Positions 14,601 through 61,558 of a stretch of DNA of 64,000 nucleotides are shown here, one piece after another. Below the pieces are notes generated by a model. The model was not told the DNA's origin, did no database searches, and saw only the letters and a list, made by a program, of their open reading frames with translations. How positions within the stretch are numbered: position 1 is the stretch's first letter; each line of letters starts with the position of its first letter. The position numbers and the translations under genes were made by a program. The stretch spans positions 234,108 to 298,107 of the forward strand of contig CAMTYL010000003.1 of the NCBI GenBank assembly GCA_947085985.1. Reading direction: 5' to 3'. This DNA comes from an uncultured bacterium. GTDB taxonomy: Bacteria; Patescibacteriota; Minisyncoccia; Phycocordibacterales; Phycocordibacteraceae.

Positions 14601-14613
14601 TTACTATGGGGGT

Positions 14614-16572: not shown

Positions 16573-16816
16573 CCTTAAGTGCCAGCTTCTCGTCTCGAGA
16601 CAGCTGCTTCATCTCGTACTCGCGCCTTGATGCGGAACTTCTATCCGTATGCTCCTCGCTATATACCAGCACAACTGGTCGCTTCGCCCGCGTGTAGCGC
16701 GCCCCTTTGTCGGACTCGTTGTGCTCTTTGATTCTCCTGTCTACATCAGTGGTAATGCCGCTATAGAGGGTTCCGTCTGCGCACTCCACCATGTAGACGT
16801 GCCAGGTACTCGCCAT
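16556..16816 (-). CDS. GIY-YIG nuclease family protein (UPF0213-like)
   Basis: WHVYMVECADGTLYSGITTDVDRRIKEHN is a GIY-YIG motif. 86 aa. Confidence 0.8.
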   Translation of the reverse strand: MASTWHVYMVECADGTLYSGITTDVDRRIKEHNESDKGARYTRAKRPVVLVYSEEHTDRSSASRREYEMKQLSRDEKLALKATQNP

Positions 16817-16819
16817 GCG

Positions 16820-18310
16820 CTATTTCTTACCGAGATCGAGAACATTATCAATGCGAATCTGCTCTACAAATTCCGGAACGTGCGACACAAGAATCATTGC
16901 GCCCTCATACTGGTCAAGCGCTTTTGCAATGACTGGAAGGTGACGGAAATTAATGTGGTTGGTCGGCTCGTCCAAAATGAGAAGCCCTGGACGCATAAGC
17001 ACGAGGCGTGCAAAGGCAACGAGACCCTTCTGTCCCTCGGACAAGGAGCCAATCTTCTTATTCATGTGTTCTGCCGTGATGATGAAGCTTGCTGCAACTT
17101 TGCGCATCTGCTCCTCGTCCTGCTTGTCCATGATGGCGAGCAGCTCCTCGCGTACTGTGCGTTCAAAATCAAGCGTAGAGAAGTCTTGGCGGTAATAGCC
17201 AACACGCACACCCTTTGCAATCTCTGCACCATCTGCTTTGCCCGAAGCAAGACGTTCAAGTAGGGTGGTCTTTCCAATACCATTCGGCCCCTTTAATTGC
17301 AGGTGCTGTTTCTTCTTAAGCACAATGTCTGCTTTGTGCGTCACGGGCACATGCTTCTTTGGGTCAATCGTAGTGTAGGAAGTAATGGTGAGAAGCTCAC
17401 CGACAATCTCGGGCTGCGCAGGAATAACGAATGGACGAATGGTGCGGTCCTCCTTGCGTACATCCACCTTGTTCTCCTCCATCTCTTCAATTGCGGTGCG
17501 CATCTTCTTGGCTACCACGCGCATCTTTCCTCCCTTTTGTGCAAAGAAGTTTGCCTTGTCCTTGTTGTCTTGAATTTGCTTTTCAAGCTGTGCGTTCTTG
17601 CGATTCTCGCGTTCAATACGCGCTGAAATTTCCTTCAAGAGGTCGTAGTAGTTTCCTACGTACTGTTCAATCTTTCGGGTATGGACGTCTAGGTACAACA
17701 CGCCTTCAGTGAAGGAGTTTAGGAACTCCGCATCGTGGGAAATAACCATCACGCTCTTCTCGTACTTCTTAAGGAAGGCGGTAAGGTGCTCAATACCTGC
17801 AGTGTCTAGATTGTTGGTAGGCTCATCAAGTAGGAGCAAGTCGGGATCCTGAATGAGTGCAGAAGCAAGAAGCAAGCGTGCTTGCTGTCCACCAGAGAAG
17901 CTCTTAATAATGCGGTCGTGCGGAGCGTGCAGGTTTACCACTTCAAGTGCAGCATCAATCTTTGGGTCAATATCGTAGACCTTCTCTGTAAAGCGCTTCT
18001 CAAAAAATGCACGCACGGTAAGCTCGCGCTCGTCTGGCGCAATTACCTGGGCCGCGATGGCAACGGTTGTTCCGCGAGGAATAAGTACGCGTCCGTCCTC
18101 TGGCTTTCGCGCTCCGGTGATAAGACTGAAGAGCGTGGACTTGCCTGCGCCGTTCTGTCCCATCAAAGTCACCTTCATACCGCGACGAAGTGAGAAGTTT
18201 ACCGTATCTAGGATAGGGTGATTGTGACCGTATCCAAATGATACGTCTTCAAATTTGACCAGGACCTCGCGTGAAGGTCCTCCTTGTTCTGTATTGTTTT
18301 TTCCAGCCAC
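16820..18310 (-). CDS. ABC-F family ATPase (two tandem ABC domains; EttA/Uup-like)
   Basis: Two Walker A sites (GQNGAGKST, GPNGIGKTT), two signature LSGGQ-like motifs (FSGGQQARL, LSEGQKGLV), no TM domain. Confidence 0.8.
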   Translation of the reverse strand: MAGKNNTEQGGPSREVLVKFEDVSFGYGHNHPILDTVNFSLRRGMKVTLMGQNGAGKSTLFSLITGARKPEDGRVLIPRGTTVAIAAQVIAPDERELTVRAFFEKRFTEKVYDIDPKIDAALEVVNLHAPHDRIIKSFSGGQQARLLLASALIQDPDLLLLDEPTNNLDTAGIEHLTAFLKKYEKSVMVISHDAEFLNSFTEGVLYLDVHTRKIEQYVGNYYDLLKEISARIERENRKNAQLEKQIQDNKDKANFFAQKGGKMRVVAKKMRTAIEEMEENKVDVRKEDRTIRPFVIPAQPEIVGELLTITSYTTIDPKKHVPVTHKADIVLKKKQHLQLKGPNGIGKTTLLERLASGKADGAEIAKGVRVGYYRQDFSTLDFERTVREELLAIMDKQDEEQMRKVAASFIITAEHMNKKIGSLSEGQKGLVAFARLVLMRPGLLILDEPTNHINFRHLPVIAKALDQYEGAMILVSHVPEFVEQIRIDNVLDLGKK

Positions 18311-18351
18311 GTTTTTACTACTCTACCACATTTTCAGCAGATTGGTAAGTA

Positions 18352-19599
18352 CTATGCGTTCTTGCCAGCCAGGTACCCGGTAGTCCAACAAAGTTGAAGT
18401 GAGTACCCGCCCGATGGACGGGTGATATCAAGCAGGTCGCCTGTCACAAACAAATTCTCCACTTTCTTGGAACGCATGGTGCGCATATCAATCTCGGTAA
18501 GTGCCACCCCGCCGTCAGCAACGACCGCACGACTCATACCCATAAGTCCAGAAATGCTAATCGGCAAACCCTTGAACAAATCAATAAGCACACGGCGCTC
18601 TTCCTTGGTTACCGAATGCACTTTAGTGTCGGGACTAATATCTGGAACGAGACCAAGTAGTGTCTCTACCATTGAAGAAGGAACGAGTTGTGGGAGTGTG
18701 TTCCGTAGCAACTTATTCTTGTTGCTATCAAACAGAGCGACGAGTTCCTTGTCCAAGATACCAATGTCTTTGGTTGGGAACATGTCTATGGTCGCAGTAA
18801 CCACTCCTTCGTACAGAAGGTCAGCAACAGTTCCTGCAGCGTTTAGAATAGTTGGTCCTGAAATACCAAAATGTGTGAGCAGAATGTCGCCACGCTTATT
18901 GAGTTTCCTCTCACCATCCAAATAGAAGGTAATCTTCGCATCAGTAAGCGTCGTGCCCTTCAAGGTGTGCACCCACTTCTCTTTTACCGCTAGGGGCACA
19001 ATCGTTGGTGTTGGCGCGGTGACGGTGTGCCCAAGCTCACTCAGCCAATCAAAGCCGTCTCCGGTAGAGCCCGTCTCTGGGTGCGACACGCCACCAGTCG
19101 CAAAGATGTAAGTATCAGCACTGAACTCAAATCCTTGCGCCACAATCGCCGTGATTCTACTTCCCTCTGTTTTTATGCGCGCGATAGCAGTATTGGTACG
19201 TACTTCTACCCCAAGCTCACGCAAATAATTTTCTAACGCTTCAACCACGAATACTGCGCGCTGTGAGACAGGGAACGCACGCTTGCGAGCTTCCACCACA
19301 ATAGGCACACCAATGCGATTAAAGAAGGCTGTTGCTTCTTGCACCCCAAACTCAGCAAACGCAGAGTAGAGAAAGGGCGCAGCCTCGCCATAATTAGCCA
19401 GAAGTGCATGTACGTCTTCTTCTGCATTCAGTATGTTGCAGCGACCGCCACCAGAAATGGCGAGCTTCTTGCCGAGCTCTGCGTTCTTCTCGATGAGTAG
19501 AACGCGCTTGCCCTGCTCAGCTGAAATACAAGCCGCCATCATGCCCGAGGCTCCACCACCCACAACGATAACGTCGTGCGTGTTTCCTGATTTAGGCAT
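18352..19599 (-). CDS. HI0933/BaiN-family FAD-binding oxidoreductase
   Basis: HDVIVVGGGASGMMAACISAEQGKRVLLIEKNAELGKKLAISGGGRCN is the diagnostic N-terminal motif. Confidence 0.8.
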   Translation of the reverse strand: MPKSGNTHDVIVVGGGASGMMAACISAEQGKRVLLIEKNAELGKKLAISGGGRCNILNAEEDVHALLANYGEAAPFLYSAFAEFGVQEATAFFNRIGVPIVVEARKRAFPVSQRAVFVVEALENYLRELGVEVRTNTAIARIKTEGSRITAIVAQGFEFSADTYIFATGGVSHPETGSTGDGFDWLSELGHTVTAPTPTIVPLAVKEKWVHTLKGTTLTDAKITFYLDGERKLNKRGDILLTHFGISGPTILNAAGTVADLLYEGVVTATIDMFPTKDIGILDKELVALFDSNKNKLLRNTLPQLVPSSMVETLLGLVPDISPDTKVHSVTKEERRVLIDLFKGLPISISGLMGMSRAVVADGGVALTEIDMRTMRSKKVENLFVTGDLLDITRPSGGYSLQLCWTTGYLAGKNA

Positions 19600-20473
19600 G
19601 GGCAGCTGGCTGTGCGGTTACGTGCTCCATACACGAAACTGAACAGAGAGTTCCTTCTTCTTTTTGGCACGACTCACACGCAAGAAAGTGCAGGTGACAG
19701 TCATTGTTTGCGCAGTTCACATACTTCTCCGTAGAATCACCACATAGCTTGCAGCGCCCCACCACTTCGCGATCACCGCCAAAATCCATCGTGAGGCGCT
19801 TGTCAAACGTGTACAGTGTTCCCTGGAAATCCTTGCCGGGGAACTTTTCCATGTATGCATGCATGCCGTTCTCTAGCTGGTACACGTCCTCAAACCCGTG
19901 CTCAAGAAGAAACGCGGACATTTTTTCGCAGCGCACACCACCTGTACACACGGTCACTACCTTCTTAGGCTTTAGCGGCTCAAGTACATGCATAGCTTTT
20001 GGCAAATCACGCGAGTTCTCCATACCAGGATTCACCGAACCCTTAAAGTGGCCCGACTGATATTCGTAGTCGTTTCGCATATCCACCACGACAAAATCCT
20101 CACCCTTTTCGTACCACTCGCGCAGTGTCTCTGCGGCTAGGTGCGGCGCAGTACGCACGCGCGGGTCAATGTTCTTAGGGAAGCGTGTTCCCACAATCTC
20201 GTCGCGCACTTTTACATACAGCTTACTGAAGGATGCTCCCGTTCCCTCACTTCGCTTTATGTTCATATCTACAAAGCGTTGATCTTTCACAAGCTCCACT
20301 GCAAACGCTTCGGTATCAGCGGTGAGCCCCTCAAGGGTTCCGTTGATTCCCTCCTCTGCTACGAGTACGCGCCCCAGAAGATTGTGCTCCTTGGCAAGCG
20401 CCCTGACACTGTCCATGACAGCTTTTGGGTCCTCTATAGTGACGTATTTATAGAAAAGCAGTACTTGATGCAT
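19592..20473 (-). CDS. trhO: rhodanese-domain tRNA U34 hydroxylase TrhO (YceA/UPF0176) with C-terminal Cys cluster
   Basis: LLFYKYVTIEDP...EGINGT (N-domain). Rhodanese CTGGVRCEK. C-terminal CKLCGD...CANNDCHLHFLACESC. Longest ORF reaches 20542; Met at 20473 avoids overlap. Confidence 0.7.
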   Translation of the reverse strand: MHQVLLFYKYVTIEDPKAVMDSVRALAKEHNLLGRVLVAEEGINGTLEGLTADTEAFAVELVKDQRFVDMNIKRSEGTGASFSKLYVKVRDEIVGTRFPKNIDPRVRTAPHLAAETLREWYEKGEDFVVVDMRNDYEYQSGHFKGSVNPGMENSRDLPKAMHVLEPLKPKKVVTVCTGGVRCEKMSAFLLEHGFEDVYQLENGMHAYMEKFPGKDFQGTLYTFDKRLTMDFGGDREVVGRCKLCGDSTEKYVNCANNDCHLHFLACESCQKEEGTLCSVSCMEHVTAQPAAHA

Positions 20474-20486
20474 CGGTGGCAGTCTA

Positions 20487-21086
20487 TCAGTTTTGCGCTC
20501 GTTCGTCAGCAGGGCGCTTCTCTTTGCGAAAGCGTGCTGCAAAGAGAATGATGGTCATCGCACCGTTAGCGAGCAGCATCGCGACTGAGTGCAGGACGGT
20601 AGCAACGTTATATGAACTTAGCGAGAGAAGCGAGAGCACATGACGAACCACGTTTGTACCGTATAGTAGAGGCGTCTCGGTCTCTGGGTGTAGGTATGCC
20701 TTGCGCAGCGTAGGAACGAACGCAATCAAATCAATGGTCACAGCAATGACAACAGAAAGCGTTGGGTCCTTAGTGAGGAGCCAAGGAATAAGCCCAAGCA
20801 ACGCGATAATGAGAAATATCGTGTCGGTTCGTGTGACATGCTTAAAACCAAACCGTAGACTGAACAAAAGAATAAGAATTGTGAATGCCTCAGCAACGGC
20901 CGTTGGGAGCGCACCCCAACCCGCACCACTTGCAAGTTGTCCGGCCAACGTAATGCCTGAGACAATACTCCAGACAAACCACGTATAGGCGTGTGGCTCA
21001 ATCTTTCTGCGCAGCAAGTCACGCAAGTAGGGAGCATGACCAACAATTACCAAAAGTGCTGCAAGCACTGCAAAGGTCTCCTTCAT
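20487..21086 (-). CDS. hypothetical polytopic membrane protein (199 aa)
   Basis: 5-6 hydrophobic helices. 4-bp overlap with the upstream 2H phosphoesterase gene. Confidence 0.45.
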   Translation of the reverse strand: MKETFAVLAALLVIVGHAPYLRDLLRRKIEPHAYTWFVWSIVSGITLAGQLASGAGWGALPTAVAEAFTILILLFSLRFGFKHVTRTDTIFLIIALLGLIPWLLTKDPTLSVVIAVTIDLIAFVPTLRKAYLHPETETPLLYGTNVVRHVLSLLSLSSYNVATVLHSVAMLLANGAMTIILFAARFRKEKRPADERAQN

Positions 21087-27776: not shown

Positions 27777-27881
27777 GACTTACACATCATAGCGGAACTA
27801 CAATGTTTTGCCTTACTTATTTACTAGCCCATGTACGCTAGAACGAGAATAACCTACAACACGTGTCGTGCTAGCTGTCAA

Positions 27882-27912
27882 TGGCTGGGGGAAAGGGATT
27901 CGAACCCCTATA
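27882..27912 (-). pseudogene. orphan tRNA 3' fragment (T-arm + acceptor 3' strand + CCA) with no matching 5' half
   Basis: Reverse strand reads ...AGGGGTTCGAATCCCTT-TCCCCCA-G-CCA. The required 5' acceptor complement (TGGGGGA) is absent within 100 nt. Confidence 0.4.
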
Positions 27913-27966
27913 GACGGCACCAAAAACCGTGTCCTACAGGCGAGTGAGCGAGTGAAATGTGCTGTG

Positions 27967-28037
27967 CTGGGAGACTAGGGATCGAACCTAGATTCACGGC
28001 TTCAAAGGCCGCTGTCCTACCATTAGACGATCTCCCA
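27967..28037 (-). tRNA. tRNA-Gln (anticodon TTG)
   Basis: Reverse strand TGGGAGA-TC-GTCT-AATGGTA-GGAC-A-GCGGC-CTTTGAA-GCCGT-GAAT-CTAGG-TTCGATC-CCTAG-TCTCCCA-G. All stems pair. Confidence 0.8.
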
Positions 28038-28039
28038 GC

Positions 28040-28108
28040 ACAGAACACTTCCGAGCGAACGCTGTCTGTATGGGCGTAGCCCATACCATTAGACGATCTG
28101 CAGCTCTA
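28040..28108 (-). pseudogene. degenerate tRNA-Gln-like 5' fragment (shares AGATCGTCTAATGGTA and GACAGCG with tRNA-Gln, interrupted by 17 nt)
   Basis: Reverse strand GCTGCAGATCGTCTAATGGTA-TGGGCTACGCCCATACA-GACAGCG-TTCGCTCGG. No T-arm. Confidence 0.35.
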
Positions 28109-39358: not shown

Positions 39359-39463
39359 GTATGCATTCTATCACTACGTACCCGCATCACACAGAAGGAG
39401 CGGTGGTGAAAAAAGAACCCGATAGTGGTATGGTTACCCCTAGTGAAGAAGACATTCACTGAT

Positions 39464-39550
39464 GCCGCGGTGATGAAATTGGTAGACATAGGGGTCTCAA
39501 AATCCCCTGCTGGCAACGGCGTGCGGGTTCGAGTCCCGCCTGCGGCACCC
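39464..39550 (+). tRNA. tRNA-Leu (anticodon CAA), long variable arm
   Basis: GCCGCGG-TG-ATGAAATTGGTAGACAT-AGGGGT-CTCAAAA-TCCCC-TGCTGGCAACGGCGT-GCGGG-TTCGAGT-CCCGC-CTGCGGC-A-CC. Confidence 0.8.
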
Positions 39551-40129
39551 ATAGACACTGCTCTCGCACCAGTACTCGCCTACATAGTCGGTGTTGCCTT
39601 AGGAGACGGGAATCTATCCTGCCCAAACGGCAGAGCCACGCGACTTCGCATAACTTGCGATACTAGATATCCAGAAGTAGCTGATGAGATTATCAAGAGT
39701 CTTAACCAGCTTTTCCCACATAACAAGGTTTCCAGGGTTAAGCCTCGAGGAGGTTGTTTTGATATCAGCGTTTACTCAAACAAACTGAATGACTGGATCC
39801 CATGGCGTGTTGGGCATGGCTCCAAAATTGTTCAGTGCGTAACTGTACCCGAGTGGATACTTTTGAATGAAGAGTATTCAAAGCATTGTCTTCGTGGACT
39901 AATTCAGACAGACGGATGCGTGTATGTAGATAGGGGCTACAGAATGGTGAATTTTACGAACAATTCAAAAGAGCTGGCGCAAAGTGTTCATGAGCTGCTA
40001 ACGCAATTGAAGTACCGCCCTCGCCTCATCTGTGTCAGTAACGGGGGCTTTAGAAAGTACACGACACGAGTGGCCAGGAAAGTTGAGGTTGAGCGGCTTA
40101 TACAAGATACAGGACTCTACAAATCGTAA
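39551..40129 (+). CDS. LAGLIDADG homing endonuclease (two motifs). Reading frame is open through the upstream tRNA-Leu(CAA) back to GTG 39425; no canonical start between tRNA end and motif 1
   Basis: Motif 1 LAYIVGVALGDGNL. Motif 2 LRGLIQTDGCVYV. In-frame codons from 39551 (ATA GAC ACT...) lack ATG/GTG/TTG until after motif 1. Confidence 0.6.
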   Translation: MDTALAPVLAYIVGVALGDGNLSCPNGRATRLRITCDTRYPEVADEIIKSLNQLFPHNKVSRVKPRGGCFDISVYSNKLNDWIPWRVGHGSKIVQCVTVPEWILLNEEYSKHCLRGLIQTDGCVYVDRGYRMVNFTNNSKELAQSVHELLTQLKYRPRLICVSNGGFRKYTTRVARKVEVERLIQDTGLYKS

Positions 40130-43683: not shown

Positions 43684-44751
43684 TTACTTACCTGCTTCAC
43701 AACCTTTTACATTGCGGATCGGCGTAACCTGACAGCGACTTGCCGAACATGCCCAGTCACTAAAATCCATATTCTTGTCCATTGCACAAGCAGCTGCCGT
43801 GCTTACGGCTGGATCCTTTGCGGCCTCGACACATGCACTGTATAGGGCCTTTGCCTCACTCGTATTCTTTATTTCAGAATTACACCAGCCTGGATGGTTG
43901 GCCTGGTCAGTGTAGTTTCCCTTCATACACGGCCGCGTAAAGGCATCTGGGCACTTCAGTGTCTTGCCGTCCTTCTTAAGCTCATGCACCGTAAGGTTTA
44001 TCTGCCACAAACCAACCGAATACGATGGACCTTTTCCATTATTCAACTTGTCGCTCCCGCTTACAACACGAGTGTTACCGCCAGCGCTTTCCATATTGCA
44101 TATAATTGCCGCGTCTGAAGCTCGCTTAGCAAAGCATGTCTTTTGCATACTAGTCACGCTGCACGGATTACTTTGCGTGACGGGCGGTTGACACTTCGGG
44201 CCAGCGGAAATGCCACTGGTTCCCGAAGAGCCACCTTCATAGGAGGATGTGGTGAGCTGGCCCGCAGTGATTGGCGCATCAAAAAGAGCTTTCATATTCG
44301 TCGTCTTTTGCACGCAGGTATCTCCACCCGTCAAAATTGAGTTCCAAGGGCCGAACTTTCCCTGTTGACCGTCAGGTCCGCTATACAAGGCCTTCATCAC
44401 AAAATCAACAATGAGCCACGCAGAGCACACAATCAGAAATCCAATCACCGCATTGATGAGCATCTTGCGCGCCGTACTCTTTGCCTCAGGATTAAACGGA
44501 GACATGATGAGAATGAATCCTGCCCACGCCATAATCACCACTGCAAAGAGTATGCCCACTGAGATGCCCGCGTTTATGAGGTTCTGGGCTATGCCCATTA
44601 CCCCCTCAAACCCGCACGGACAAGAGCGGCAGGCCTCTGGCACCAAGCTCCACCCGGAAGAGAAGAGTGGCATGTCCTGCGCACGGGATACAAGCGGGAC
44701 AGCAAGCAGCATTGCTGCCGAAATAATTGGAGTCGCCCGGACTAACTTCAT
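43684..44751 (-). CDS. fusion protein: signal peptide + pilin-like two-helix membrane module (paralog of 42149-43126 N-module) + VirB1/Slt-like lytic transglycosylase domain, Cys-rich
   Basis: N-module MGIAQNLINAGISVGILFAVVIMAWAGFILIMSPFNPEAKSTARKMLINAVIGFLIVCSAWLIVDFVMKALY. ESAGGNTRVV...YSVGLWQIN (catalytic E-S and GLxQIN motif of GH23/VirB1-type transglycosylases). Confidence 0.55.
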   Translation of the reverse strand: MKLVRATPIISAAMLLAVPLVSRAQDMPLFSSGWSLVPEACRSCPCGFEGVMGIAQNLINAGISVGILFAVVIMAWAGFILIMSPFNPEAKSTARKMLINAVIGFLIVCSAWLIVDFVMKALYSGPDGQQGKFGPWNSILTGGDTCVQKTTNMKALFDAPITAGQLTTSSYEGGSSGTSGISAGPKCQPPVTQSNPCSVTSMQKTCFAKRASDAAIICNMESAGGNTRVVSGSDKLNNGKGPSYSVGLWQINLTVHELKKDGKTLKCPDAFTRPCMKGNYTDQANHPGWCNSEIKNTSEAKALYSACVEAAKDPAVSTAAACAMDKNMDFSDWACSASRCQVTPIRNVKGCEAGK

Positions 44752-44833
44752 GTAAGCATTGTAGCCTGCAAATCGGGCGCGTGGCTGCGCTTTTCCCCGC
44801 CCCGGTTCTCTGGTATCGTGAGTCTGTCACCAC

Positions 44834-44907
44834 GGGTCCATAGTTTAGTGGTAGAACATCGGTCTCCAAAACCGATAGTGTAGGTTCGATTCCTACTGGG
44901 CCCGCCA
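44834..44907 (+). tRNA. tRNA-Trp (anticodon CCA)
   Basis: GGGTCCA-TA-GTTTAGTGGTAGAACA-TCGGT-CTCCAAA-ACCGA-TAGTG-TAGGT-TCGATTC-CTAC-TGGGCCC-G-CCA. Confidence 0.85.
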
Positions 44908-44912
44908 AGAAG

Positions 44913-44934
44913 AACCCCGAAAGGGGTTTTCTTC
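44913..44934 (+). terminator. rho-independent terminator after tRNA-Trp
   Basis: AACCCC-gaaa-GGGGTT followed by TTCTTC. Confidence 0.55.
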
Positions 44935-44968
44935 GTGGCGGGCCCAAGCAAACGTGGGACGTTTGCGC

Positions 44969-45304
44969 GTAGGAATCGAAGATGTTGCGAGCATATTTCG
45001 TAAGCGAAGCGGACTGAAATATCCGCAACGTGTACAGAAACTGTAAGTTTCGAAAGCGAAGCGTTTCCTACTGGACTTAGGAATCGAAGCGCGGAGCCGT
45101 GACGACGGCGAGCGGGGGTCGCGGAATTTTGCAGCAGGAAAATATCTGTGACCGATGCGTGAGCAAATTCTCTTACGAGCACAGCGAGTTTAGAGATATA
45201 AGGAGCTGCGCGACTATATATCTATTATTTGTCTATTTAGAGAATGCGAACTTCCTACTGGTCTTAGATCCCGGGCGAAAGTGGTACTCCACGGTTCCTA
45301 CTGA
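44969..45304. repeat. cluster of tRNA-Trp-derived fragments: inverted T-arm copies GTAGGAATCGAAG (44969-44981, 45076-45087) and direct 3'-end copies TTCCTACTGG/A (45063-45072, 45252-45261, 45295-45304)
   Basis: Exact 10-13-nt matches to the tRNA-Trp T-loop/acceptor TTCGATTCCTACTGG, in both orientations, within a 400-bp noncoding trailer. Confidence 0.7.
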
Positions 45305-45309
45305 GCCCC

Positions 45310-46224
45310 TTATCCGTACTTCTTAAGAAAATCTGCTACTTTAATGTAGCCAAGTTTCACTTGATGTGGTGCAACCCCAGTCTCCAAAAAATCGGCATAC
45401 TCTTTCTCCTTTACATTACCCTTCTGATCAATAAACTGCCCCCAGAACATGAGGCCAGACGGGTATGCATCAGAGTCATCTGCGACGGAGAAGCCGACAC
45501 GCCTTGCTATCGGTGTGTCCATAAGCCAGGAGCGTCCAATAATATATTTTGCATTCGGGCTGTTCTCCTTAATAGACGTTGCGAGCTCGCGAAAGGAATC
45601 CTGAGAGAAAATATTTACAGCTGAAATTTCATCATTTTCAACTTGCTCTGCAAGCGGAGTAACATGAATCTCAACAACTTCGTCCTCTGCAGATATCTGT
45701 GGGAAGTCAGGAAAGAGCTTCCCGTTAAATACTGCGTAGCCTATTAATCCCGCATGAAAAGGACCTCTTCTATCTTGTGGCGGCATCTCCTCTGGTACCC
45801 TATCCTCAACTACCTTTTCTCCAATCTCTGCTGCAGAAAAACTTTCTCCCACTTTTGAAACGATACTCGGTAAACGAGGAATGAATGATGTATCCTCGGG
45901 CGCGTAGCTGGCATCAACAGCATCAAGTACACACTGAGTAAATGATTGGTATGTATCTGGTAGCTGCCAGGAGTGCTTTCTCGTATTCGTATAGAAAGCG
46001 TCAGAGATAAGGGGCTGGAGAATGTAACAGTCGTGAAGGTATGAACTTAGTCGCTCCCCCTTTGGAATAGTTTCTGTGCTCGGTGTTTTACCTTCCCATA
46101 CGCGTACCCGGTACTGAGTCTCAAGCGAATCAAGCTTTGCGTATACCGACTCCTTAGTTTCAGCGGGGCTTGTTTCTGCTATAGCAGGTCGTGGCTTTTG
46201 TTCAGCAATACCTTCGTATCCCAT
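45310..46224 (-). CDS. hypothetical protein (start ATG 46224; longest ORF from GTG 46269)
   Basis: Intact 300+ aa ORF. No recognised motif. Confidence 0.4.
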   Translation of the reverse strand: MGYEGIAEQKPRPAIAETSPAETKESVYAKLDSLETQYRVRVWEGKTPSTETIPKGERLSSYLHDCYILQPLISDAFYTNTRKHSWQLPDTYQSFTQCVLDAVDASYAPEDTSFIPRLPSIVSKVGESFSAAEIGEKVVEDRVPEEMPPQDRRGPFHAGLIGYAVFNGKLFPDFPQISAEDEVVEIHVTPLAEQVENDEISAVNIFSQDSFRELATSIKENSPNAKYIIGRSWLMDTPIARRVGFSVADDSDAYPSGLMFWGQFIDQKGNVKEKEYADFLETGVAPHQVKLGYIKVADFLKKYG

Positions 46225-53070: not shown

Positions 53071-53418
53071 ATGAGTATCCGCGACAACCGCATCAGCATT
53101 CAGCTTATGGAACAGGCGGGCGCCTACATCGCTCGCGAAGCTGGCCGTAACACCCTCATCACGCCAACGCGTGTAGCCCTTTCCAAAGACGGCAAGGATG
53201 CCACCATTTTCGTAAGCGTCTATCCTGTGAAGGATATTGACCACGCACTCGCCTTTCTCTTGCGTCACAAAGACCTCTTCCGTAATAGCCTGCGAAAGAC
53301 CACGCGCATTGGACGCATCCCCTACATCCGTTTTGAGTTTGATCACGGAGAGGCAAACCGTCAGCACATAGACGAGATTTCTCGCGAGATATCCAAAGGA
53401 CACTCGCACGAGGACTAG
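53071..53418 (+). CDS. rbfA: ribosome-binding factor A
   Basis: MSIRDNRISIQLMEQAGAYI...LITPTRVALSKDGKDATIFVSVYP...IPYIRFEFD fits the RbfA KH-like pattern. Start 2 nt after the infB stop. Confidence 0.7.
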   Translation: MSIRDNRISIQLMEQAGAYIAREAGRNTLITPTRVALSKDGKDATIFVSVYPVKDIDHALAFLLRHKDLFRNSLRKTTRIGRIPYIRFEFDHGEANRQHIDEISREISKGHSHED

Positions 53419-53443
53419 CTTCGCGGTAGTATTGCCGTATCAG

Positions 53444-53515
53444 GCTCGGTGGTGAAGTAGAAACACGGCGGATTGCAAACCCGCTACTGCGCGGGTGCGA
53501 TTCCCGCCCGGGCCT
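53444..53515 (+). tRNA. tRNA-Cys (anticodon GCA), atypical (A-C at 31-39, G54 in T-loop)
   Basis: GGCTCGG-TG-GTG-AAGTAGAAA-CAC-G-GCGGA-TTGCAAA-CCCGC-TACTG-CGCGG?-TGCGATT-CCCGC-CCGGGCC-U73. The U73 discriminator fits Cys identity. Confidence 0.55.
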
Positions 53516-53656
53516 CTGAACGAAGTGAAGAGAACGGGAGAACCCTGCCTGCGCAGGGTTCGTCGGGAATCGCAAGCCGCAGCGATACTTCTTGTACTCA
53601 AGAGGTCGCGAGGCCGGGCAGGAGCACTTGCTCGTCCGCGAGCTTAGTGACTGGTG

Positions 53657-53676
53657 CCGTTTCCCGCCCGGGCCTC
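53657..53676 (+). repeat. direct repeat of the tRNA-Cys 3' end (TTCCCGCCCGGGCCTC, 16/16; extended GGTGC-G-TTCCCGCCCGGGCCTC) 160 bp downstream of the original
   Basis: Exact 16-nt identity between 53501-53516 and 53661-53676. Confidence 0.8.
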
Positions 53677-53693
53677 CAAGGTATACTTATTTA

Positions 53694-54197
53694 GTGTCGG
53701 CACGCGTACCAGAGCGTTGGGCTGAGGCAAATGTGCGAGACGCTGTGTCTCGTTCAACCAGTGTTCGTGATCTCATTCAAAATCTTGGACTGGTGCCTGC
53801 TGGTGGTAATTATGACCAGTGCTATCTGCACATTGAACGTTACAAGATTGATATCTCGCACTTTACTGGAAAGGCGTGGTGTAAAGGACGCACTATTCCG
53901 AAGTCTCCCGTATATTCGCTTGAGGAGCTGCTCGTTAAAGACGCAAAAACTTCTCGTGTAAATCTCAAGAGGCGCTTGTTTTCTTCAGGACTGAAAAGAC
54001 GTGCGTGCGAGGAATGCGGCTGGGCGCGAGTAAGTGAGGACGGGAGAATTCCAATTGAGCTTGATCATATAAACGGGGACAGTAGGGACAACAGGCTGGA
54101 GAATTTGAGAATTCTGTGCCCTAATTGCCACAGTTTGAAACCTACACACAGAGGAAGTAATATTCTCTACAAGCGCCGGGGTGGTGAAATTGGTTAG
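53694..54197 (+). CDS. HNH endonuclease (homing-endonuclease-like). Start uncertain (longest ORF from 53592 runs through the tRNA-Cys repeat); stop codon lies inside tRNA-Leu(TAA)
   Basis: CEECGW...IELDHINGDSRDNRLENLRILCPNCHS is a canonical HNH (His-Asn-His, Cys4) motif. TAG stop is the TTAG of the tRNA D-loop. Confidence 0.7.
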   Translation: MSARVPERWAEANVRDAVSRSTSVRDLIQNLGLVPAGGNYDQCYLHIERYKIDISHFTGKAWCKGRTIPKSPVYSLEELLVKDAKTSRVNLKRRLFSSGLKRRACEECGWARVSEDGRIPIELDHINGDSRDNRLENLRILCPNCHSLKPTHRGSNILYKRRGGEIG

Positions 54198-54259
54198 ACA
54201 CGAAGGTCTTAAACACCTTCGACGGAAACGTCATGCGGGTTCGAGTCCCGCCCCCGGCA
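54175..54259 (+). tRNA. tRNA-Leu (anticodon TAA), long variable arm
   Basis: GCCGGGG-TG-GTGAAATTGGTTAGACAC-GAAGGT-CTTAAAC-ACCTTC-GACGGAAACGTCAT-GCGGG-TTCGAGT-CCCGC-CCCCGGC-A. Confidence 0.8.
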
Positions 54260-54442
54260 CATTTGAGTGAAGCGAAAGGAGTGCTGGGGAGCACATCTGG
54301 GAGATGTGCGTGCGGGACCCGAAAACCTTGCGAGACTGGACGCTAGTCCAGCCGCAAGGTGTACGCTGAGATTCTTAAGGAGCACAGCGACTGTAAGAAT
54401 CCAAGTGCAGTTTAGCAAAAGCTGCCCGTCCCCGTAGGGAAA

Positions 54443-54460
54443 GAGTCCCGCCCCCGGCAC
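54443..54460 (+). repeat. direct repeat of the tRNA-Leu(TAA) 3' end (GAGTCCCGCCCCCGGCAC, 18/18) exactly 200 bp downstream
   Basis: Identical to 54243-54260. Confidence 0.8.
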
Positions 54461-54482
54461 CGAGATATCGTATAATCACCAG

Positions 54483-55625
54483 ATGCTCAGCCGACTACTT
54501 TCTCGCTTTTCTCCGCACCACCCTCTTATTGAGGTAGGCATTTCTAAAGAGGCCCTACTGCACAACCTTAGAAGTTATCAGACCGCATACCCAGAGTTTG
54601 GTCTTGCTCCTGTTCTCAAAAGCAACGCCTACGGCCACGACCTTGGGCTGGTTGCTCGCGTACTTGATACTGAGCCAATTTCTTTTTTTATGGTGGACTC
54701 ACTCTACGAGGCAAGGCGCCTGCGCGCGGCAGGAGTTCGAAAGACGGTGGTGGTCATGGGCTACACTCGCCCCGAGGATATGGCGGAAAGTAGGTACCGC
54801 GACGTGCACTTCGTGATTGTTGATATTGAGCAGCTGCGGCTTGTCGCCACCCAAGCCAAGCGTTCTCTCACACTTCACCTGAAGCTTGATACGGGTATGC
54901 ATCGCCAAGGGATCACTAAAGCAGACCTTCCTGAAGCCATCGCCCTCCTTTCTGGCAACCCGCACCTCTCTCTTGCGGGTGTGTGCTCGCACTTTGCTGA
55001 CGCTGATACTGAAGGGTCCGCACATGCACAAAGGCAGCTAACCACCTGGAAAGAGATGCTCTCGGTCCTTGAGTCAACCTTCACAAGCATTACGTACAAA
55101 CACTTTGCAGCCACCAAAGGTGTGCGCTTCGCAAAGGAAGCGGGCACGAACGTGATTCGTCTTGGTATTGGACTCTATGGGTTTGATACCGCACCAAACA
55201 AGGACACGCCCCTTATGCCGGTGATGGAGTTGCGCTCCATTGTGGGAGGATTGCGCACGGTCGCAGCGCTTGAATCCGTAGGGTATAACGCTACCTACAC
55301 TGCAGACCACGAAACCAGGGTGGCAACGGTCCCTGCGGGCTATTTTGAGGGCATAGACCGCAGACTCTCCAACAAGGGACAGGTATCCATACGGGGCGTC
55401 CTCTGCCCCATCATTGGGCGAGTCTCTATGAACATGGTGTGCGTAGACGTAACGCACGTTCCTGACATTGCAATCGGCGACGAGGTCATTCTGATTAGTC
55501 GTGCCGCCACTAACCCAAACTCGGTGCCGAGCATCCGTTCATTAGTGAGCTGTCCTGACTACCAGGAATCAGAGTATGTGATTATTTCGCACATTCCCCA
55601 GCACTTGCGCCGAGTACTTGAATAA
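54483..55625 (+). CDS. alr: alanine racemase
   Basis: PLP-lysine motif APVLKSNAYGHDLG. 380 aa. C-terminal beta-domain. Confidence 0.85.
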   Translation: MLSRLLSRFSPHHPLIEVGISKEALLHNLRSYQTAYPEFGLAPVLKSNAYGHDLGLVARVLDTEPISFFMVDSLYEARRLRAAGVRKTVVVMGYTRPEDMAESRYRDVHFVIVDIEQLRLVATQAKRSLTLHLKLDTGMHRQGITKADLPEAIALLSGNPHLSLAGVCSHFADADTEGSAHAQRQLTTWKEMLSVLESTFTSITYKHFAATKGVRFAKEAGTNVIRLGIGLYGFDTAPNKDTPLMPVMELRSIVGGLRTVAALESVGYNATYTADHETRVATVPAGYFEGIDRRLSNKGQVSIRGVLCPIIGRVSMNMVCVDVTHVPDIAIGDEVILISRAATNPNSVPSIRSLVSCPDYQESEYVIISHIPQHLRRVLE

Positions 55626-55676
55626 CTGTGCGGATACGTATATTATTCCCCTATTCCTGACCTCGGTCAGGAATAT

Positions 55677-55749
55677 GCGCCCTTAGCTCAGTTGGTAGAG
55701 CAACTCCCTCTTAAGGAGATGGTCCCTGGTTCGAATCCAGGAGGGCGCA
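55677..55749 (+). tRNA. tRNA-Lys (anticodon CTT)
   Basis: GCGCCCT-TA-GCTCAGTTGGTAGAGC-A-ACTCC-CTCTTAA-GGAGA-TGGTC-CCTGG-TTCGAAT-CCAGG-AGGGCGC-A. Confidence 0.8.
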
Positions 55750-55796
55750 CAAATAAAAACACCCGGACCTCCGGGTGTTTTTATTTGTGCGCCCTC
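55741..55796. terminator. 56-bp perfect palindrome made of the tRNA-Lys 3' end (GAGGGCGCACAAAT), a terminator hairpin (AAAAACACCCGG-acct-CCGGGTGTTTTT) and an inverted copy of the tRNA 3' end (ATTTGTGCGCCCTC)
   Basis: Read directly. Outer arms 14 bp, inner arms 12 bp, 4-nt loop. Confidence 0.75.
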
Positions 55797-56047
55797 AGGA
55801 AGACATCTGCATGTCTTCCGTCTGGATTCGAACGCCGGAGCATGTTTCTCTCAGCAGAGAGAAACAGCGAGGCGGTGCCCGACCTAAATTTCTTGAGCGC
55901 AGCGATTAGAAATTGAAAGTACTCCTGTGGTGCAGAGCAAGCCGAGTGACGACGAGGCGCAGACTCGCGGGCGAAAAGCGTAATCGCGGTCCAGGATGAT
56001 TTTATCTGTTTGTGCAGCTTATGATTTCTGGTACCATAGCAAAACAA

Positions 56048-56129
56048 GCCCGGGTGGTGAAATTGGTATACACGCCTGCCTTAGGAGCAGGTCCCTTCGG
56101 GGGTGGAGGTTCAAGTCCTCTCCCGGGCA
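56048..56129 (+). tRNA. tRNA-Leu (anticodon TAG), long variable arm
   Basis: GCCCGGG-TG-GTGAAATTGGTATACAC-GCCTGC-CTTAGGA-GCAGG-TCCCTTCGGGGGT-GGAGG-TTCAAGT-CCTCT-CCCGGGC-A. Confidence 0.8.
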
Positions 56130-56417
56130 CAACAACGAACAAGTCTGATGCGGAAGCATTGGACTTCTATCGTTTTGTAGACCCGGTAGAGGACTTGAAA
56201 GACGGAGGTGCGCGCCGAGAATCTCTTGAGCGAAGCGATTAGAGATTCCAAGTACTCCTGGGGTGAAGCCACGCGAAGCGTGTAGCCGAGTCGGGGTCGC
56301 GCTACTTAGCGAGTCTGCGAGCTTAGTGATGCGTGGCCAAAAGTGTAATCACGTGTCCTCCGGGCACAACAACGAACAAGTCTGATGCGGAAGCATTGGA
56401 CTTCTATCGTTTTGTAG
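56123..56417 (+). repeat. 58-nt direct repeat (CCGGGCAC + 50-nt trailer) at 56123-56180 and 56360-56417, bracketing a ~180-bp trailer unit homologous to the unit after tRNA-Lys (55890-55995)
   Basis: Exact 58/58 identity. Bracketed unit shares CTTGAGCG(A/C)AGCGATTAGA...AGTACTCCTG...AGCCGAGT...AAAAG(C/T)GTAATC(G/A)CG(G/T)GTCC with the Lys trailer. Confidence 0.8.
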
Positions 56418-56447
56418 CACTGGGAAAAGACTCCAGAGTAGTAAGGG

Positions 56448-57542
56448 TTAGTTACTTTCCGAAGAGTAGTCCGCCACCTGAATGAGCTCTCTGCCGTACT
56501 CCTCAACAAGTTCACGAATTTCTGCCACTTCTGTATCAGTCCCTATCAGATCTTCGGACACACTCGCCGTACCGAGCGTTACGCCGATGAGGTTGCCCGT
56601 AATGGCACCCGTGCTGTCACTGTCCCCGTCGTGATTTACCGCAAGACGCAGCGCATCTGCAACGGACAGTGTTCCGTTTGCACATTGCAGTGCGCAGTAC
56701 AATGAAATCGCGAGTGCTTCCTCCGCTATCCATCCCTGCCCAAGAGCCTGGAGACTCTCTGTGCTTGGCTGGTGTTGCGCACCTTCTAGTGCTCGCTCGT
56801 ATAGCTCCTGTACGTCCGGAGCGGGGAAATACTTAAGCGCGGTTTCAACCGCTTCTCCGAGACTTTCACCATGGAGCACAAGTGCAATGACGACTGCAAG
56901 CAGGCCACTTGCATGATGAGCTATGGGGTTGCCATGAGTAATGGCAGCGTCACTTGCTCCCTGCTCGTACACTTTTTGTAAGTCTGTGCGAGTTGTGCCC
57001 TTAACTACGTTCCCGAAGAAAAGTCCTATAGGAGCTGCGCGCATCACTGCTCCACAACTTTTACTATCATTTGCAGCTGGCTCTGGAGGCAGCGGCATAT
57101 TCTTAAGCGCACTTAGGCACGTCAAACCAGGTGCGCGTGGACCCTGAGCGTATATCACTTCATGCAAATGTTTGCTTCCCCATTCTCTGTTTATGTATCT
57201 AGGGTTTTCTTCGCGTTGTGTCGTAAGCCACTGCAAATAGCTTTCGGCAGTATACGTCCAGTAGGGCGCGAGGATTCCTTTATCCAAGCCACGCTTGTGC
57301 GCGTGGATTAGTCCGTCGGCTGCAAATAGTGCCATCTGCGTGTCATCCGTCACTGCGCCCTTCTTGCCGTAGCAAACGTCCGGGTACTGAATACCAGAGA
57401 CCTTTTGTTCTACTCCACCGTACTTTTCTAGAATCGCGTCGAGCTTCATGAACTCTACAGCAGAGCCAAGTGCGTCTCCTGTTGCCCCAAGCAACAAGCA
57501 GGCCTGCGCCTTGTCTATTCTTGTAGCTTTGTCTGTCGTCAT
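56448..57542 (-). CDS. ADP-ribosylglycohydrolase family protein (DraG/ARH-like)
   Basis: LLGATGDALGSAVEF (metal-binding GDALG motif). C-terminal D..D.TGAI (NHDGDSDSTGAITG). Confidence 0.75.
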   Translation of the reverse strand: MTTDKATRIDKAQACLLLGATGDALGSAVEFMKLDAILEKYGGVEQKVSGIQYPDVCYGKKGAVTDDTQMALFAADGLIHAHKRGLDKGILAPYWTYTAESYLQWLTTQREENPRYINREWGSKHLHEVIYAQGPRAPGLTCLSALKNMPLPPEPAANDSKSCGAVMRAAPIGLFFGNVVKGTTRTDLQKVYEQGASDAAITHGNPIAHHASGLLAVVIALVLHGESLGEAVETALKYFPAPDVQELYERALEGAQHQPSTESLQALGQGWIAEEALAISLYCALQCANGTLSVADALRLAVNHDGDSDSTGAITGNLIGVTLGTASVSEDLIGTDTEVAEIRELVEEYGRELIQVADYSSESN

Positions 57543-59964: not shown

Positions 59965-60333
59965 TTAGCGAGGACCGCCTGTAGTAGGGGCTACTGGGTA
60001 GCTAGGCACGTTGTTCTGCAGGCCTACTGACCCGGTAAGAATACGTACGAGTCCCCATACTGATACCATCACGAAGAAGCCGATAAGGCCCCAGAGCATG
60101 AGTGCACGACCCTTCTCCTTTGCCTCCTCGTTAGTTCCGCCGAGGATGAACACCTGGAACACGCCCCAGATAAATACGATAAACGCGAGTGCAAATACTA
60201 CCGGTACCGCAACGTTGTTGATGAGACCGATAATAAACTCACCTGCACCCTGCACACTTGTGACGGTTCCCGTCTGCGCGAATGCGATGAGTGGGAAAAC
60301 GAGCACGGCACCAATAAGACCAAGTTTCTTCAT
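59965..60333 (-). CDS. T4SS-pilin-like protein, paralog 2 (with signal peptide)
   Basis: Signal peptide, then VPVVFALAFIVFIWGVFQVFILGGTNEEAKEKGRALMLWGLIGFFVMVSVWGL. Confidence 0.5.
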   Translation of the reverse strand: MKKLGLIGAVLVFPLIAFAQTGTVTSVQGAGEFIIGLINNVAVPVVFALAFIVFIWGVFQVFILGGTNEEAKEKGRALMLWGLIGFFVMVSVWGLVRILTGSVGLQNNVPSYPVAPTTGGPR

Positions 60334-60416
60334 AGAGGATAATTAGCTAGATACCCTTATAGGATAGTCTAGTGGTGGGTAACGTCAATAGAATAAGCAG
60401 CCTGGTGTGGAAAACA

Positions 60417-60845
60417 CTAGCGATTACACTTCGACGGGTCTTTGTCAAAACACGGCAAGTTTGGGCGCGTGTTGTTGTCGGTAGGAATAAGTGACTTAGC
60501 AAGATTCACCAGTCCCCAAATGGAGAGCATCACCACAAAGCCAATGAGTGCCCATAGTACAAACTTAGCTCCCTCCTTTCTCTTTTCCTCGTTATTAGCT
60601 CCAAGAATAAAAGCCTGGAACACGCCCCAGAGAAACACTATGAATGCGAGCGCAAACACGAATGGCACTACCACCGTATTAAGCACTCCAATAAATGAGT
60701 CACTCAAGTTCTGAATCGCACTCGTATTTAGCGCCCCGGGCTGTGGGGCCGGGGCTGGATTCTGTTGCGCTACGGCAACTGAGGCAGAGAGCAACAGCAG
60801 CGAGAGTAAGGCAACGTGTCCCAGTCGGAAAAAGAAAGTCTTCAT
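60417..60845 (-). CDS. T4SS-pilin-like protein, paralog 3 (with signal peptide)
   Basis: VVPFVFALAFIVFLWGVFQAFILGANNEEKRKEGAKFVLWALIGFVVMLSIWGL. Confidence 0.5.
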   Translation of the reverse strand: MKTFFFRLGHVALLSLLLLSASVAVAQQNPAPAPQPGALNTSAIQNLSDSFIGVLNTVVVPFVFALAFIVFLWGVFQAFILGANNEEKRKEGAKFVLWALIGFVVMLSIWGLVNLAKSLIPTDNNTRPNLPCFDKDPSKCNR

Positions 60846-60894
60846 ATATCTATAAGCGTACCAGACTACCCTACTCTACTTCGCGGTTATCCCA

Positions 60895-61134
60895 CTAGCT
60901 AGGGAGTATACCCAGAAACAGTCTGACGATGCTCCACACAGAGAACAGTACGACAAATCCAATAATTCCCCAGAGCATAAAGACGCGCCCCTTCTGCCGC
61001 TGCTCTTCGCCGCCCATAAAAAAGAACCGCACCATCCCAATGAGGAAGAAAATAAAGGCCAGCGCGTACAGAAGCGGTATAACCGCTCCATCTACCAGGC
61101 GCGCAATACTGTTTACGAGGTCTGCGAACGTCAT
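60895..61134 (-). CDS. T4SS-pilin-like protein, paralog 4
   Basis: IPLLYALAFIFFLIGMVRFFFMGGEEQRQKGRVFMLWGIIGFVVLFSVWSI. Confidence 0.5.
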   Translation of the reverse strand: MTFADLVNSIARLVDGAVIPLLYALAFIFFLIGMVRFFFMGGEEQRQKGRVFMLWGIIGFVVLFSVWSIVRLFLGILPS

Positions 61135-61135
61135 A

Positions 61136-61558
61136 CTAGCCGAGTGAATCTACTGTTGAGCGAATCACCATACCAATGGTTTGAGCACCCAAAAGCACCA
61201 GTCCTCCTATCACCGTCCACATAAGGGCGCTTCTGGCTGACCGAAGCTCTTCTTCATTTCCCTGGGCTTTTACAAACAGAAAGCCCACATACACAATGGC
61301 AAGGGTCAAAACAATGGTTCCGAGCGTTATTACTGCCTCAAGAATTTTTTCCAGGAATTCAGGGAGTGAATCAATCCCATCGAGCGGATTGGTGAGTCCT
61401 CCGCTGTAGCCACCAGGATTATCACCACCAGAGCCTCCCGCAGGATTGCCTCCTCCAGAGCCTCCTGCCGGCGTCTGCGCCAATGCGAAGGAGGCAAAGG
61501 AGCCATTGATTGCCACAAACGTCAGTGCGATGAATAAGAGTCTAAAGAAGCGATTCAT
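61136..61558 (-). CDS. T4SS-pilin-like protein, paralog 5 (signal peptide, Gly-rich insert)
   Basis: Signal peptide, GGSGGGNPAGGSGG repeats, then LGTIVLTLAIVYVGFLFVKAQGNEEELRSARSALMWTVIGGLVLL. Confidence 0.45.
   Translation of the reverse strand: MNRFFRLLFIALTFVAINGSFASFALAQTPAGGSGGGNPAGGSGGDNPGGYSGGLTNPLDGIDSLPEFLEKILEAVITLGTIVLTLAIVYVGFLFVKAQGNEEELRSARSALMWTVIGGLVLLGAQTIGMVIRSTVDSLG

Follow-up and report, generated by a model that had tools for sequence, protein, structure and literature searches.

What has placed exact copies of the 3' ends of transfer RNA (tRNA) genes behind two such genes that enclose a gene for an HNH endonuclease? The question is raised by a 64-kb stretch of DNA from an uncultured bacterium of the Patescibacteriota (GenBank assembly GCA_947085985.1, contig CAMTYL010000003.1), analysed here over its full length as the window, in which seven tRNA genes were found by ARAGORN and Rfam. 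The tRNA-Cys(GCA) gene (53443-53516, forward strand) ends in the 16-nucleotide (nt) sequence TTCCCGCCCGGGCCTC (53501-53516, tRNA positions 59-74; the proximal copy), which occurs exactly twice in the window, the second time at 53661-53676, 160 bp further on, with 0.01 occurrences expected from shuffled sequences. The tRNA-Leu(TAA) gene (54175-54260, forward strand; same two programs) has as its proximal copy the 18-nt sequence GAGTCCCGCCCCCGGCAC (54243-54260), also present exactly twice, with a spacing of 200 bp (second copy 54443-54460; 0.00 expected from shuffles). The HNH endonuclease gene between them (53694-54197, forward strand) stops at a TAG codon (54195-54197) that covers nucleotides 21-23 of tRNA-Leu(TAA), in its D-loop. 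A sequence-only reading of the locus had reported both copies and this stop codon, correctly in all details, and had taken the whole for a homing-endonuclease cassette wedged between tRNAs. It missed that tRNA ends are also duplicated at tRNA-Lys, tRNA-Leu(TAG), and tRNA-Trp, and that each element between the copies contains an inverted copy of the tRNA 3' part. Small elements are present behind five of the seven window tRNAs. Each sits as an insertion in the 3' end of its tRNA gene, of which a 3' fragment has been displaced; the elements are polymorphic, the order of their arrays differs between species, and they are independent of the HNH gene. The chances are about even that the repeats are the scars of small non-coding, hairpin-rich insertions in tRNA 3' ends.

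The element behind tRNA-Cys, element A (53517-53660, forward strand; 144 nt, non-coding), begins with a spacer (53517-53529) and a degenerate inverted acceptor sequence (53530-53539), followed by a small perfect hairpin (53540-53561; GAACCCTGC-CTGC-GCAGGGTTC), an inverted tRNA-Cys T-arm (53563-53574; TCGGGAATCGCA), and a core with GCGAGCTTAGTGA. Its distal copy (53661-53678, forward strand) repeats tRNA-Cys positions 59-74, goes on with CA to give a full CCA, and continues into a flank that is orthologous in the relative L001 (…GGGCCTCCAaag). The site is empty in L001, where tRNA-Cys reads …GGGCCTCCA followed by aag, matching the distal copy and flank of the window. Judged by this alignment, the distal copy is most probably the displaced original 3' end of tRNA-Cys. 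Element A is missing at the orthologous site in L001, L003, L087-L089, L096, L097, and L099, and was seen only in the window species. Element B, behind tRNA-Leu(TAA) (54261-54442, forward strand; 182 nt), shows the same succession: a spacer with GAGTGAAGCGAAAG, an inverted acceptor (54281-54289), a small hairpin (54291-54309), an inverted T-arm (54311-54323), a central hairpin (54326-54359), and a further hairpin (54370-54401) with the loop GGAGCACAGCGACTG, closed by a distal copy of tRNA-Leu(TAA) positions 57-74 (54443-54460, forward strand). It was found in the window species and L001 only (88% identity), a 41-nt block around the central hairpin being 100% conserved between the two, and it is missing from L003, L087-L089, L096, L097, L099, and L007; in L003 the empty site reads tRNA-Leu(TAA) …ACCA, two bases before alr. 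Precise empty sites were found for element A in L001 and L003, and for element B in L003, L087, L088, L096, L097, and L099.

Comparison of the orthologous loci separates the elements from the HNH gene. The gene order infB-rbfA-tRNA-Cys-HNH-tRNA-Leu(TAA) was present in all nine relatives looked up (63-78% identity in the HNH protein), with alr next after tRNA-Leu(TAA) in eight of them, and in all nine the HNH open reading frame (ORF) ends within tRNA-Leu. Seven of these HNH-bearing relatives, as well as the Kaiserbacteria metagenome-assembled genome (MAG) L007, have elements at none of these tRNAs. Since seven HNH-bearing syntenic relatives lack any repeats, the repeats are independent of the HNH gene, and the proposal that they form part of its cassette fails; nor was there any sign that the HNH endonuclease made them, as the suggestion of an endonuclease-driven duplication of tRNA ends would have it, the elements coming and going independently of the gene. 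What stands of the cassette is a nuclease gene wedged between tRNAs, together with an empty site in L007 (Alr 51% identical), where 42 nt separate tRNA-Cys from tRNA-Leu(TAA); the repeats are not its borders. Examined for the sporadic presence with a collinear empty site that a free-standing homing gene would show, the loci give a mixed picture: the gene is present in nine of nine closer relatives, and the empty site lies further out, in L007.

The product of the HNH ORF read from its likely start, GTG at 53694, is also the one given by gene callers (P0001, 167 aa); the last 23 nt of the gene overlap tRNA-Leu(TAA), and the C-terminal residues RRGGEIG are tRNA-Leu(TAA) sequence in translation. 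It matches Pfam HNH_3 with 27.5 bits (cut-off 24.8) and HNH with 26.0 bits (cut-off 21.4). Residues C105, C108, D124, H125, N127, N137, C142, C145, H146, and H152 are invariant among 20 sequences, two of them from phages, so the motif CxxC…DH…N…N…CxxCH, comprising the catalytic D-H…N…N/H and two zinc-binding CxxC pairs, is kept in full; a degenerate motif, which would have spoken against a homing nuclease, was not observed. The ORF is thus predicted to encode an intact ββα-Me nuclease, and a sequence search of the PDB with the protein gave a marginal match to McrA only. More than 6000 homologs were found, chiefly in Parcubacteria/Patescibacteria MAGs. Among the best 120, most short-form homologs end in RRGGEIG… or IHATLKTL, which is the 5' half of tRNA-Leu read as protein, and about 80 homologs have such tRNA-Leu-derived tails, which indicates that the HNH/tRNA-Leu pair is old, vertically inherited, and kept across a broad clade. 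Identity at the three codon positions between the window and L001 is 82/88/43% for the HNH gene, evidence of purifying selection, and 65/76/39% for the less well conserved alr. By these comparisons the gene has probably not been mobile recently and is an old, stable resident beside tRNA-Leu. Full-length homologs with 34-41% identity are present in 254 phage records, and the phage members of the family are annotated as HNH endonucleases. In Felix-O1-like phages, the homolog (33-37% identity; L101 1459-1989 and L102 1492-2022) stops 1-2 nt before tRNA-Leu(TAG), in a cluster of 13-15 tRNA genes, an arrangement matching that of the window gene.

Similar elements are present at the three further tRNAs. 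Behind tRNA-Lys(CTT) (55677-55750), element C (55751-55989) consists of a 27-bp perfect palindrome formed by tRNA end and terminator, a small hairpin, an inverted T-arm, module 1, a hairpin with a GAGCGCAGCGAT loop, and the 3' motif GCGTAATCGCG, and is followed by a decayed distal copy, TCCAGGATG (55990-55998; all on the forward strand). This scar corresponds to the acceptor state still used by tRNA-Lys of L001, and the window tRNA-Lys and the adjoining inverted copy have in common a newer acceptor sequence, paired in the 27-bp palindrome. In L003 (7753-7826) and L088 (11778-11851), tRNA-Lys(CTT) lies on the opposite strand, right after the alr terminator; in the other relatives it is on the alr strand. 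At tRNA-Leu(TAG) (56048-56130; locus 56048-56425, forward strand), a terminator-like hairpin X, within 56131-56180, precedes element D (56181-56354), whose distal copy GTCCTC--CGGGCAC (56355-56367) is followed by a duplicate of hairpin X.

The tRNA-Trp(CCA) gene heads a tandem array of three elements, E1, E2, and E3 (44834-45312, forward strand), each ending in a TTCCTACTG(G) copy. The order is Trp-E1-E2-E3 in the window and is swapped, Trp-E2-…-E1, in the nearest other species, L105 (89% identity in the neighbouring protein), and an element type that has collapsed in the window array is complete in L105. The 3' end that tRNA-Trp receives depends on the element type: of E1 and E2, one type supplies an encoded CCA and the other does not. 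Since the scar of element C keeps the L001 state and the ends supplied by E1 and E2 differ, the 3' end appears to be borne by the element and to displace that of the host; target duplication by a staggered cut fits the pattern of copies less well. The Trp arrays seem to behave like accretion arrays. Five contigs, taken from five sequencing runs and all of the window species, have an identical neighbouring protein and identical arrays, and no within-species element polymorphism was detected. In the small hairpin of E1 (44949-44967), four of eight base pairs differ from L105, three of them compensated, the element sequence around it being about 95% identical; the stem changes far more rapidly than the sequence on either side, and the GGG loop is kept. 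The L105 contig ends inside tRNA-Trp and inside tRNA-Cys, beside elements. A spurious 144-aa ORF over the tRNA-Trp array has been annotated as a gene in one public assembly (L108), and other spurious long ORFs run through tRNAs and elements at 53159-53575 (reverse strand), 44748-45182 (reverse strand), and 53473-53694 (forward strand).

A common architecture was recognised in at least 10 elements of about 145-240 bp, at seven tRNA species and in three lineages, from a sample of about 12 elements and four genomes. Read from the tRNA, it comprises a spacer, in the form of either a GAGYGNAGCGA motif or a palindromic intrinsic terminator; the 3' strand of the acceptor in inverted copy; an A, a small perfect hairpin of 7-10 bp (loop CTGC, GGG, TAA, or TTGA), and a G; the inverted T-stem 3' strand and T loop; core modules; a direct tRNA copy from about position 59 to the end; and the original flank. 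The cores are homologous among elements in GAGCGNAGCGAT-loop hairpins, a GGAGC…hairpin…GAGGCGGGGTCG module, and the GCGAGCTTAGTGA motif noted in element A, and a 3' motif, GGCSAAAAGYG-TAAT-CRCG, is shared. The elements (144-240 bp) contain listed ORFs that are short and overlapping. Of the 79 tRNAs in all fetched loci, nine are followed by an inverted T-arm at a distance of 46-72 nt (upstream control, two), and all nine also have the rest of the architecture. Two of the nine occur in unrelated Patescibacteria MAGs fetched by chance, at a tRNA-Gly (L079), where the 18-nt copy is perfect and another unit follows in tandem, and at a tRNA-Tyr (L017). L007, L017, and L079 were obtained from a scan of genome contigs with an Alr alignment, in which the matches listed were mostly from distant taxa. 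The sequence AGCGNAGCG occurs at 45003, 45055, 55896, and 56229, that is, four times in about 1.3 kb of element sequence and each time on the strand of the tRNA; as a rule, one copy is close to the 5' end of an element and another in a hairpin loop. About 0.09 occurrences would be expected in the elements from the window-wide 4.5, a roughly 40-fold enrichment, and it could be a putative protein-binding repeat.

The explanation favoured here, which stands at roughly equal odds of being right or wrong, is that the tRNA cluster holds two independent layers of selfish DNA, a fixed HNH gene and miniature tRNA-integrating elements moved in trans. The first layer would be an old, fixed, free-standing gene of homing-endonuclease type directly upstream of tRNA-Leu(TAA), reading into the tRNA for its stop. 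The second would consist of protein-less, palindrome-rich miniature elements of about 145-240 bp that integrate into the 3' part of tRNAs. Each would bring a replacement tRNA 3' end, from about T-loop position 59 to the end, then a spacer or terminator, the inverted tRNA positions 74-54 split by a hairpin at the T-stem/acceptor junction, and conserved core hairpins, and the original 3' end of the host would be pushed downstream, where it is seen as the distal repeat. Both integration and excision may be site-specific recombination of the Campbell type, with the crossover in the T loop or where the T and acceptor stems meet. A hypothetical recombinase encoded elsewhere would act in trans and recognise the elements by their Y-shaped palindrome together with the recurring AGCGNAGCG motifs.

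This footprint is of a well-known kind, that of tRNA-integrating elements. In tRNA-integrating islands, a regenerated tRNA with a displaced 3' fragment is the defining signature, and the crossover lies in the T loop or at the T/acceptor junction (PMC4383910). Like such islands and prophages, the elements regenerate the tRNA and leave a direct 3' fragment of 16-18 nt at the far end; they also resemble islands in their precise empty sites, their tandem arrays, and a supplied 3' end that may differ from that of the host. By the criteria of Islander, the displaced direct 3' fragment and the precise empty sites were found, and an integrase inside the element was not. Unlike islands, the elements measure 145-240 bp and have neither integrase nor ORF, an inverted copy of the attachment (att) region is split by a T/acceptor hairpin, and identity with the tRNA extends from position 59 rather than over the whole T loop. 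Williams reportedly placed, in 2002, the attachment sites of tyrosine integrases at the T loop or the T/acceptor junction.

Several observations weigh against an explanation by integration in trans. The identity of the distal copies usually begins at position 59 and not at 54, which is unlike the classical T-loop-centred overlap of tyrosine recombinases. No recombinase, transposase, or reverse transcriptase was found among the genes flanking any element, and a circular or excised form was not observed. Similarity between copies at different tRNAs is no higher than about 50-80%, and the five same-species contigs are identical, indicating no recent activity of the elements in this species. Metagenome contigs of the Joint Genome Institute (JGI) did not show the family; there, an exact search for the 3' motif KGGCSAAAAGYGTAATCRCGK gave six matches, all by chance, with no tRNA within 3 kb. 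Viral contigs gave no matches to the module-1 pattern, and a blastn search of phage genomes with element C gave none either; matches to module 1 or to the loop motif in L022, L033, and L046 were rejected as chance, with no tRNA nearby. Finally, the 88% identity of element B between the window and L001 stands against 60-79% for the flanking genes and 39-47% for third codon positions, which points to some sequence-specific function of element B, possibly as a cis site of recombination or in an RNA role; this may serve the host and not mobility.

The last of these points leads to the rival that survives best, although it was considered rather unlikely: the elements may be structured non-coding RNAs or cis-regulatory RNAs, such as tRNA-like mimics or processing and termination modules, inherited vertically and often deleted. 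Such a role would suit the conservation of element B at a distance where third codon positions are saturated, with its fully conserved 41-nt block, and its strong folding (z about -6.8); moreover, the inverted and direct copies form a closing helix like the acceptor/T-stem stack, in which one change keeps the pairing (U·G to U-A), and deletion between direct repeats of 16-18 nt would give apparent empty sites without mobility. However, Rfam 15 showed only tRNAs at gathering score in 53300-56700, with nothing credible at E up to 10, and a strong bidirectional terminator stands between the tRNA and most elements. The elements are also sporadic, being present at none of the four tRNAs in seven relatives and swapped in array order between close species, and it is the inverted copy that keeps in step with the functional tRNA, the distal copies decaying. 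The folds themselves point to DNA. Double changes were counted at 12 of the 17 pairs of the small hairpin and one-sided (G·U-type) changes at none, and 67 of its 68 cells are Watson-Crick; element B folds about equally on its two strands (z -6.8 and -6.3), and tRNA-Lys with the start of element C gives a Y-shaped DNA hairpin fold (z = -15). Distal array members have lost the palindrome centre, and losing the centre is the typical fate of DNA palindromes. On these Watson-Crick hairpins, the folding of both strands, the collapse of palindromes, and the missing Rfam match, constraint at the DNA level seems to be favoured.

A further possibility, doubtful and somewhat less probable than an RNA role, is that the elements choose their tRNA by nucleic-acid complementarity: they would constitute a new protein-less class of mobile element with an antisense guide (positions 54-74) split by a fast-evolving junction hairpin, and with a replacement 3' end; folding would turn them into Y-shaped mimics of their target, and they would move by way of a single-stranded intermediate, either DNA or RNA. 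To reach another tRNA, such an element would have to change nothing but its guide.

Slightly less probable again are retro-elements resembling short interspersed nuclear elements, in which a nick at A58/N59 of the T loop would prime cDNA on an element RNA ending in tRNA positions 59-74. The left boundary does lie at about 58/59 in 6 of 10 junctions, with a variable right boundary (16, 18, or about 74 nt), and element A has an A-to-T difference exactly at position 58; every element contains an antisense copy of the tRNA 3' end like a primer-binding site, the 3' end motif is conserved, and the 18-nt length resembles retroviral primer-binding sites bounded by m1A58. Against this, the proximal tRNA/element junctions (A, B, L079, and the E2 element of L105) have no non-encoded CCA, which shows that mature tRNA was not the template, no reverse transcriptase lies nearby, and perfect Watson-Crick hairpins are DNA-like. 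A retro-copy of mature tRNA was rejected on the same junctions and on the CCA after the distal copy of element A, which is natively encoded in L001; likewise, copies that seemed 5'-truncated, and would as such have favoured target-primed reverse transcription, were recognised as palindromes that had collapsed internally.

Equally improbable is an origin as by-products of nuclease breaks near tRNAs (HNH, LAGLIDADG, or GIY-YIG), repaired by fold-back priming at the terminator hairpin and template switching, which comes close to the earlier idea of endonuclease-driven duplication and would mean that there is no family of elements. Three nuclease families adjoin tRNA genes in these genomes, the direct-inverted-direct order is the outcome expected of two template switches, and the palindromes are centred on terminator loops. 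However, core modules unrelated to tRNAs (module 1, the AGCGNAGCG hairpins, and the 3' motif) are homologous across tRNAs and lineages, the small hairpin is always at the same junction, and HNH is present in seven element-free relatives. Least of all can the elements be derivatives of classical transposons, either miniature inverted-repeat transposable elements or casposon-like elements with a long target-site duplication, for although the duplications here are mostly 14-18 bp and casposons duplicate 14 bp (PMC4779613), the sequences just inside them, compared by eye, are not terminal inverted repeats, duplication length varies from 14 to about 74 nt, the differences between proximal and distal copies fit an element-borne end, and neither Cas1 nor a transposase is present.

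The favoured reading of miniature elements integrating in trans also invites comparison with other known systems. Casposons leave a 14-bp duplication at the 3' ends of tRNA-Leu genes, and several can stand in tandem with a single target-site duplication in common (PMC4779613). The elements resemble them in the tRNA 3'-end target and in tandem arrays sharing the duplication, and differ in that the terminal inverted repeats, Cas1, PolB, and fixed duplication of casposons were not found here. Cis-mobilisable elements (CIMEs) are att-flanked, have no recombination genes, and derive from integrative and conjugative elements (ICEs) of Streptococcus. Like CIMEs, the present elements are non-autonomous, flanked by att repeats, and accreted in tandem, and would need a recombinase in trans; unlike CIMEs, which are kilobases long and ICE-derived, they are palindromic and have no known helper. 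A palindrome with a side hairpin is also found in folded single-strand attP sites of the CTXφ type and in the T-shaped terminal hairpins of parvoviruses. The likeness, a long palindrome with a side hairpin whose stem is the chromosomal target duplex, is an analogy only, and there is no evidence here of a single-stranded intermediate, of XerCD use, or of an HUH protein. For the first layer, the closest parallel is given by phage free-standing homing genes: SegB of phage T4 has been shown experimentally to be a homing endonuclease in a tRNA cluster (PMC2330249). The window gene resembles SegB and the HNH genes of Felix-O1-like phages as a small nuclease gene wedged between tRNAs, and differs from them in its place on a chromosome, its fixation throughout a broad clade of Parcubacteria, the purifying selection on it, and its stop codon inside the tRNA.

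The 3' ends of tRNA genes are classic landing pads of kilobase-scale islands. Here, a footprint of the island type comes from gene-less elements measuring about 150-250 bp, in which a conserved, Y-shaped palindrome reproduces the target. For their size of 145-240 bp, their gene-lessness, and the split inverted target copy, no description was found, Rfam giving no match and searches of the full-text literature nothing comparable. If mobile, they would rank with the smallest elements known to us that integrate site-specifically and would mark a recombination system in Patescibacteria, whose described mobile elements are few. In practical terms, they produce tRNA fragments, long palindromes, assembly breaks, and spurious annotated ORFs. 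The HNH/tRNA-Leu pairing is common to Felix-O1-like phages and these bacteria, and HNH, LAGLIDADG, and GIY-YIG genes habitually share boundaries with tRNA genes in these genomes.

The sequence-only reading had also pointed to a LAGLIDADG ORF at tRNA-Leu(CAA) and to two homing-endonuclease families beside Leu tRNA genes, and both observations hold. The ORF (39521-40129, forward strand) adjoins tRNA-Leu(CAA) (39463-39551, forward strand), as it does in many relatives, and, like the HNH gene, has its Pfam match confirmed (LAGLIDADG_3, E=1.5e-10, 41.6 bits), with an invariant LGDGN motif. Its only in-frame start codons lie inside the tRNA, the first usable one being GTG at 39521 in the T-arm; the N-terminal VDIGVSKSPAGNGVRVRVPPAAPI of many homologs is tRNA-Leu(CAA) sequence in translation, and L103 has the gene in synteny. 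A third nuclease type was observed in L079 (9038-9307, reverse strand), where an 89-aa GIY-YIG ORF ends 10 nt inside the 5' end of tRNA-Gly, the tRNA that carries the tandem array.

In L089, an island (10615-20528) takes the place of alr, directly after tRNA-Leu(TAA) and tRNA-Lys; it starts with a 575-aa large serine recombinase and includes a Toprim primase, a DEAD helicase, and a methyltransferase. It was rejected as a case of the same kind, its junction having no small-element architecture. Elsewhere in the window (27880-28105, reverse strand), tRNA-Gln(TTG) is bracketed by pieces of a diverged second tRNA-Gln, with a copy of its D-arm, GATCGTCTAATGGTA, about 50 nt upstream, and a fragment running from the anticodon arm to CCA downstream (…ACGGTTTTTGGTGCCGT…GGGGTTCGAATCCCTTTCCCCCAGCCA). 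The arrangement looks like an older gene interrupted by an insertion, with which the complete new tRNA-Gln would have arrived. Beyond the tRNA cluster, on its downstream side at 59965-61558 and at the equivalent places in L001, L003, and L087, a row of three to five small genes for proteins like type IV secretion system pilins (PF18895) is kept in all relatives.

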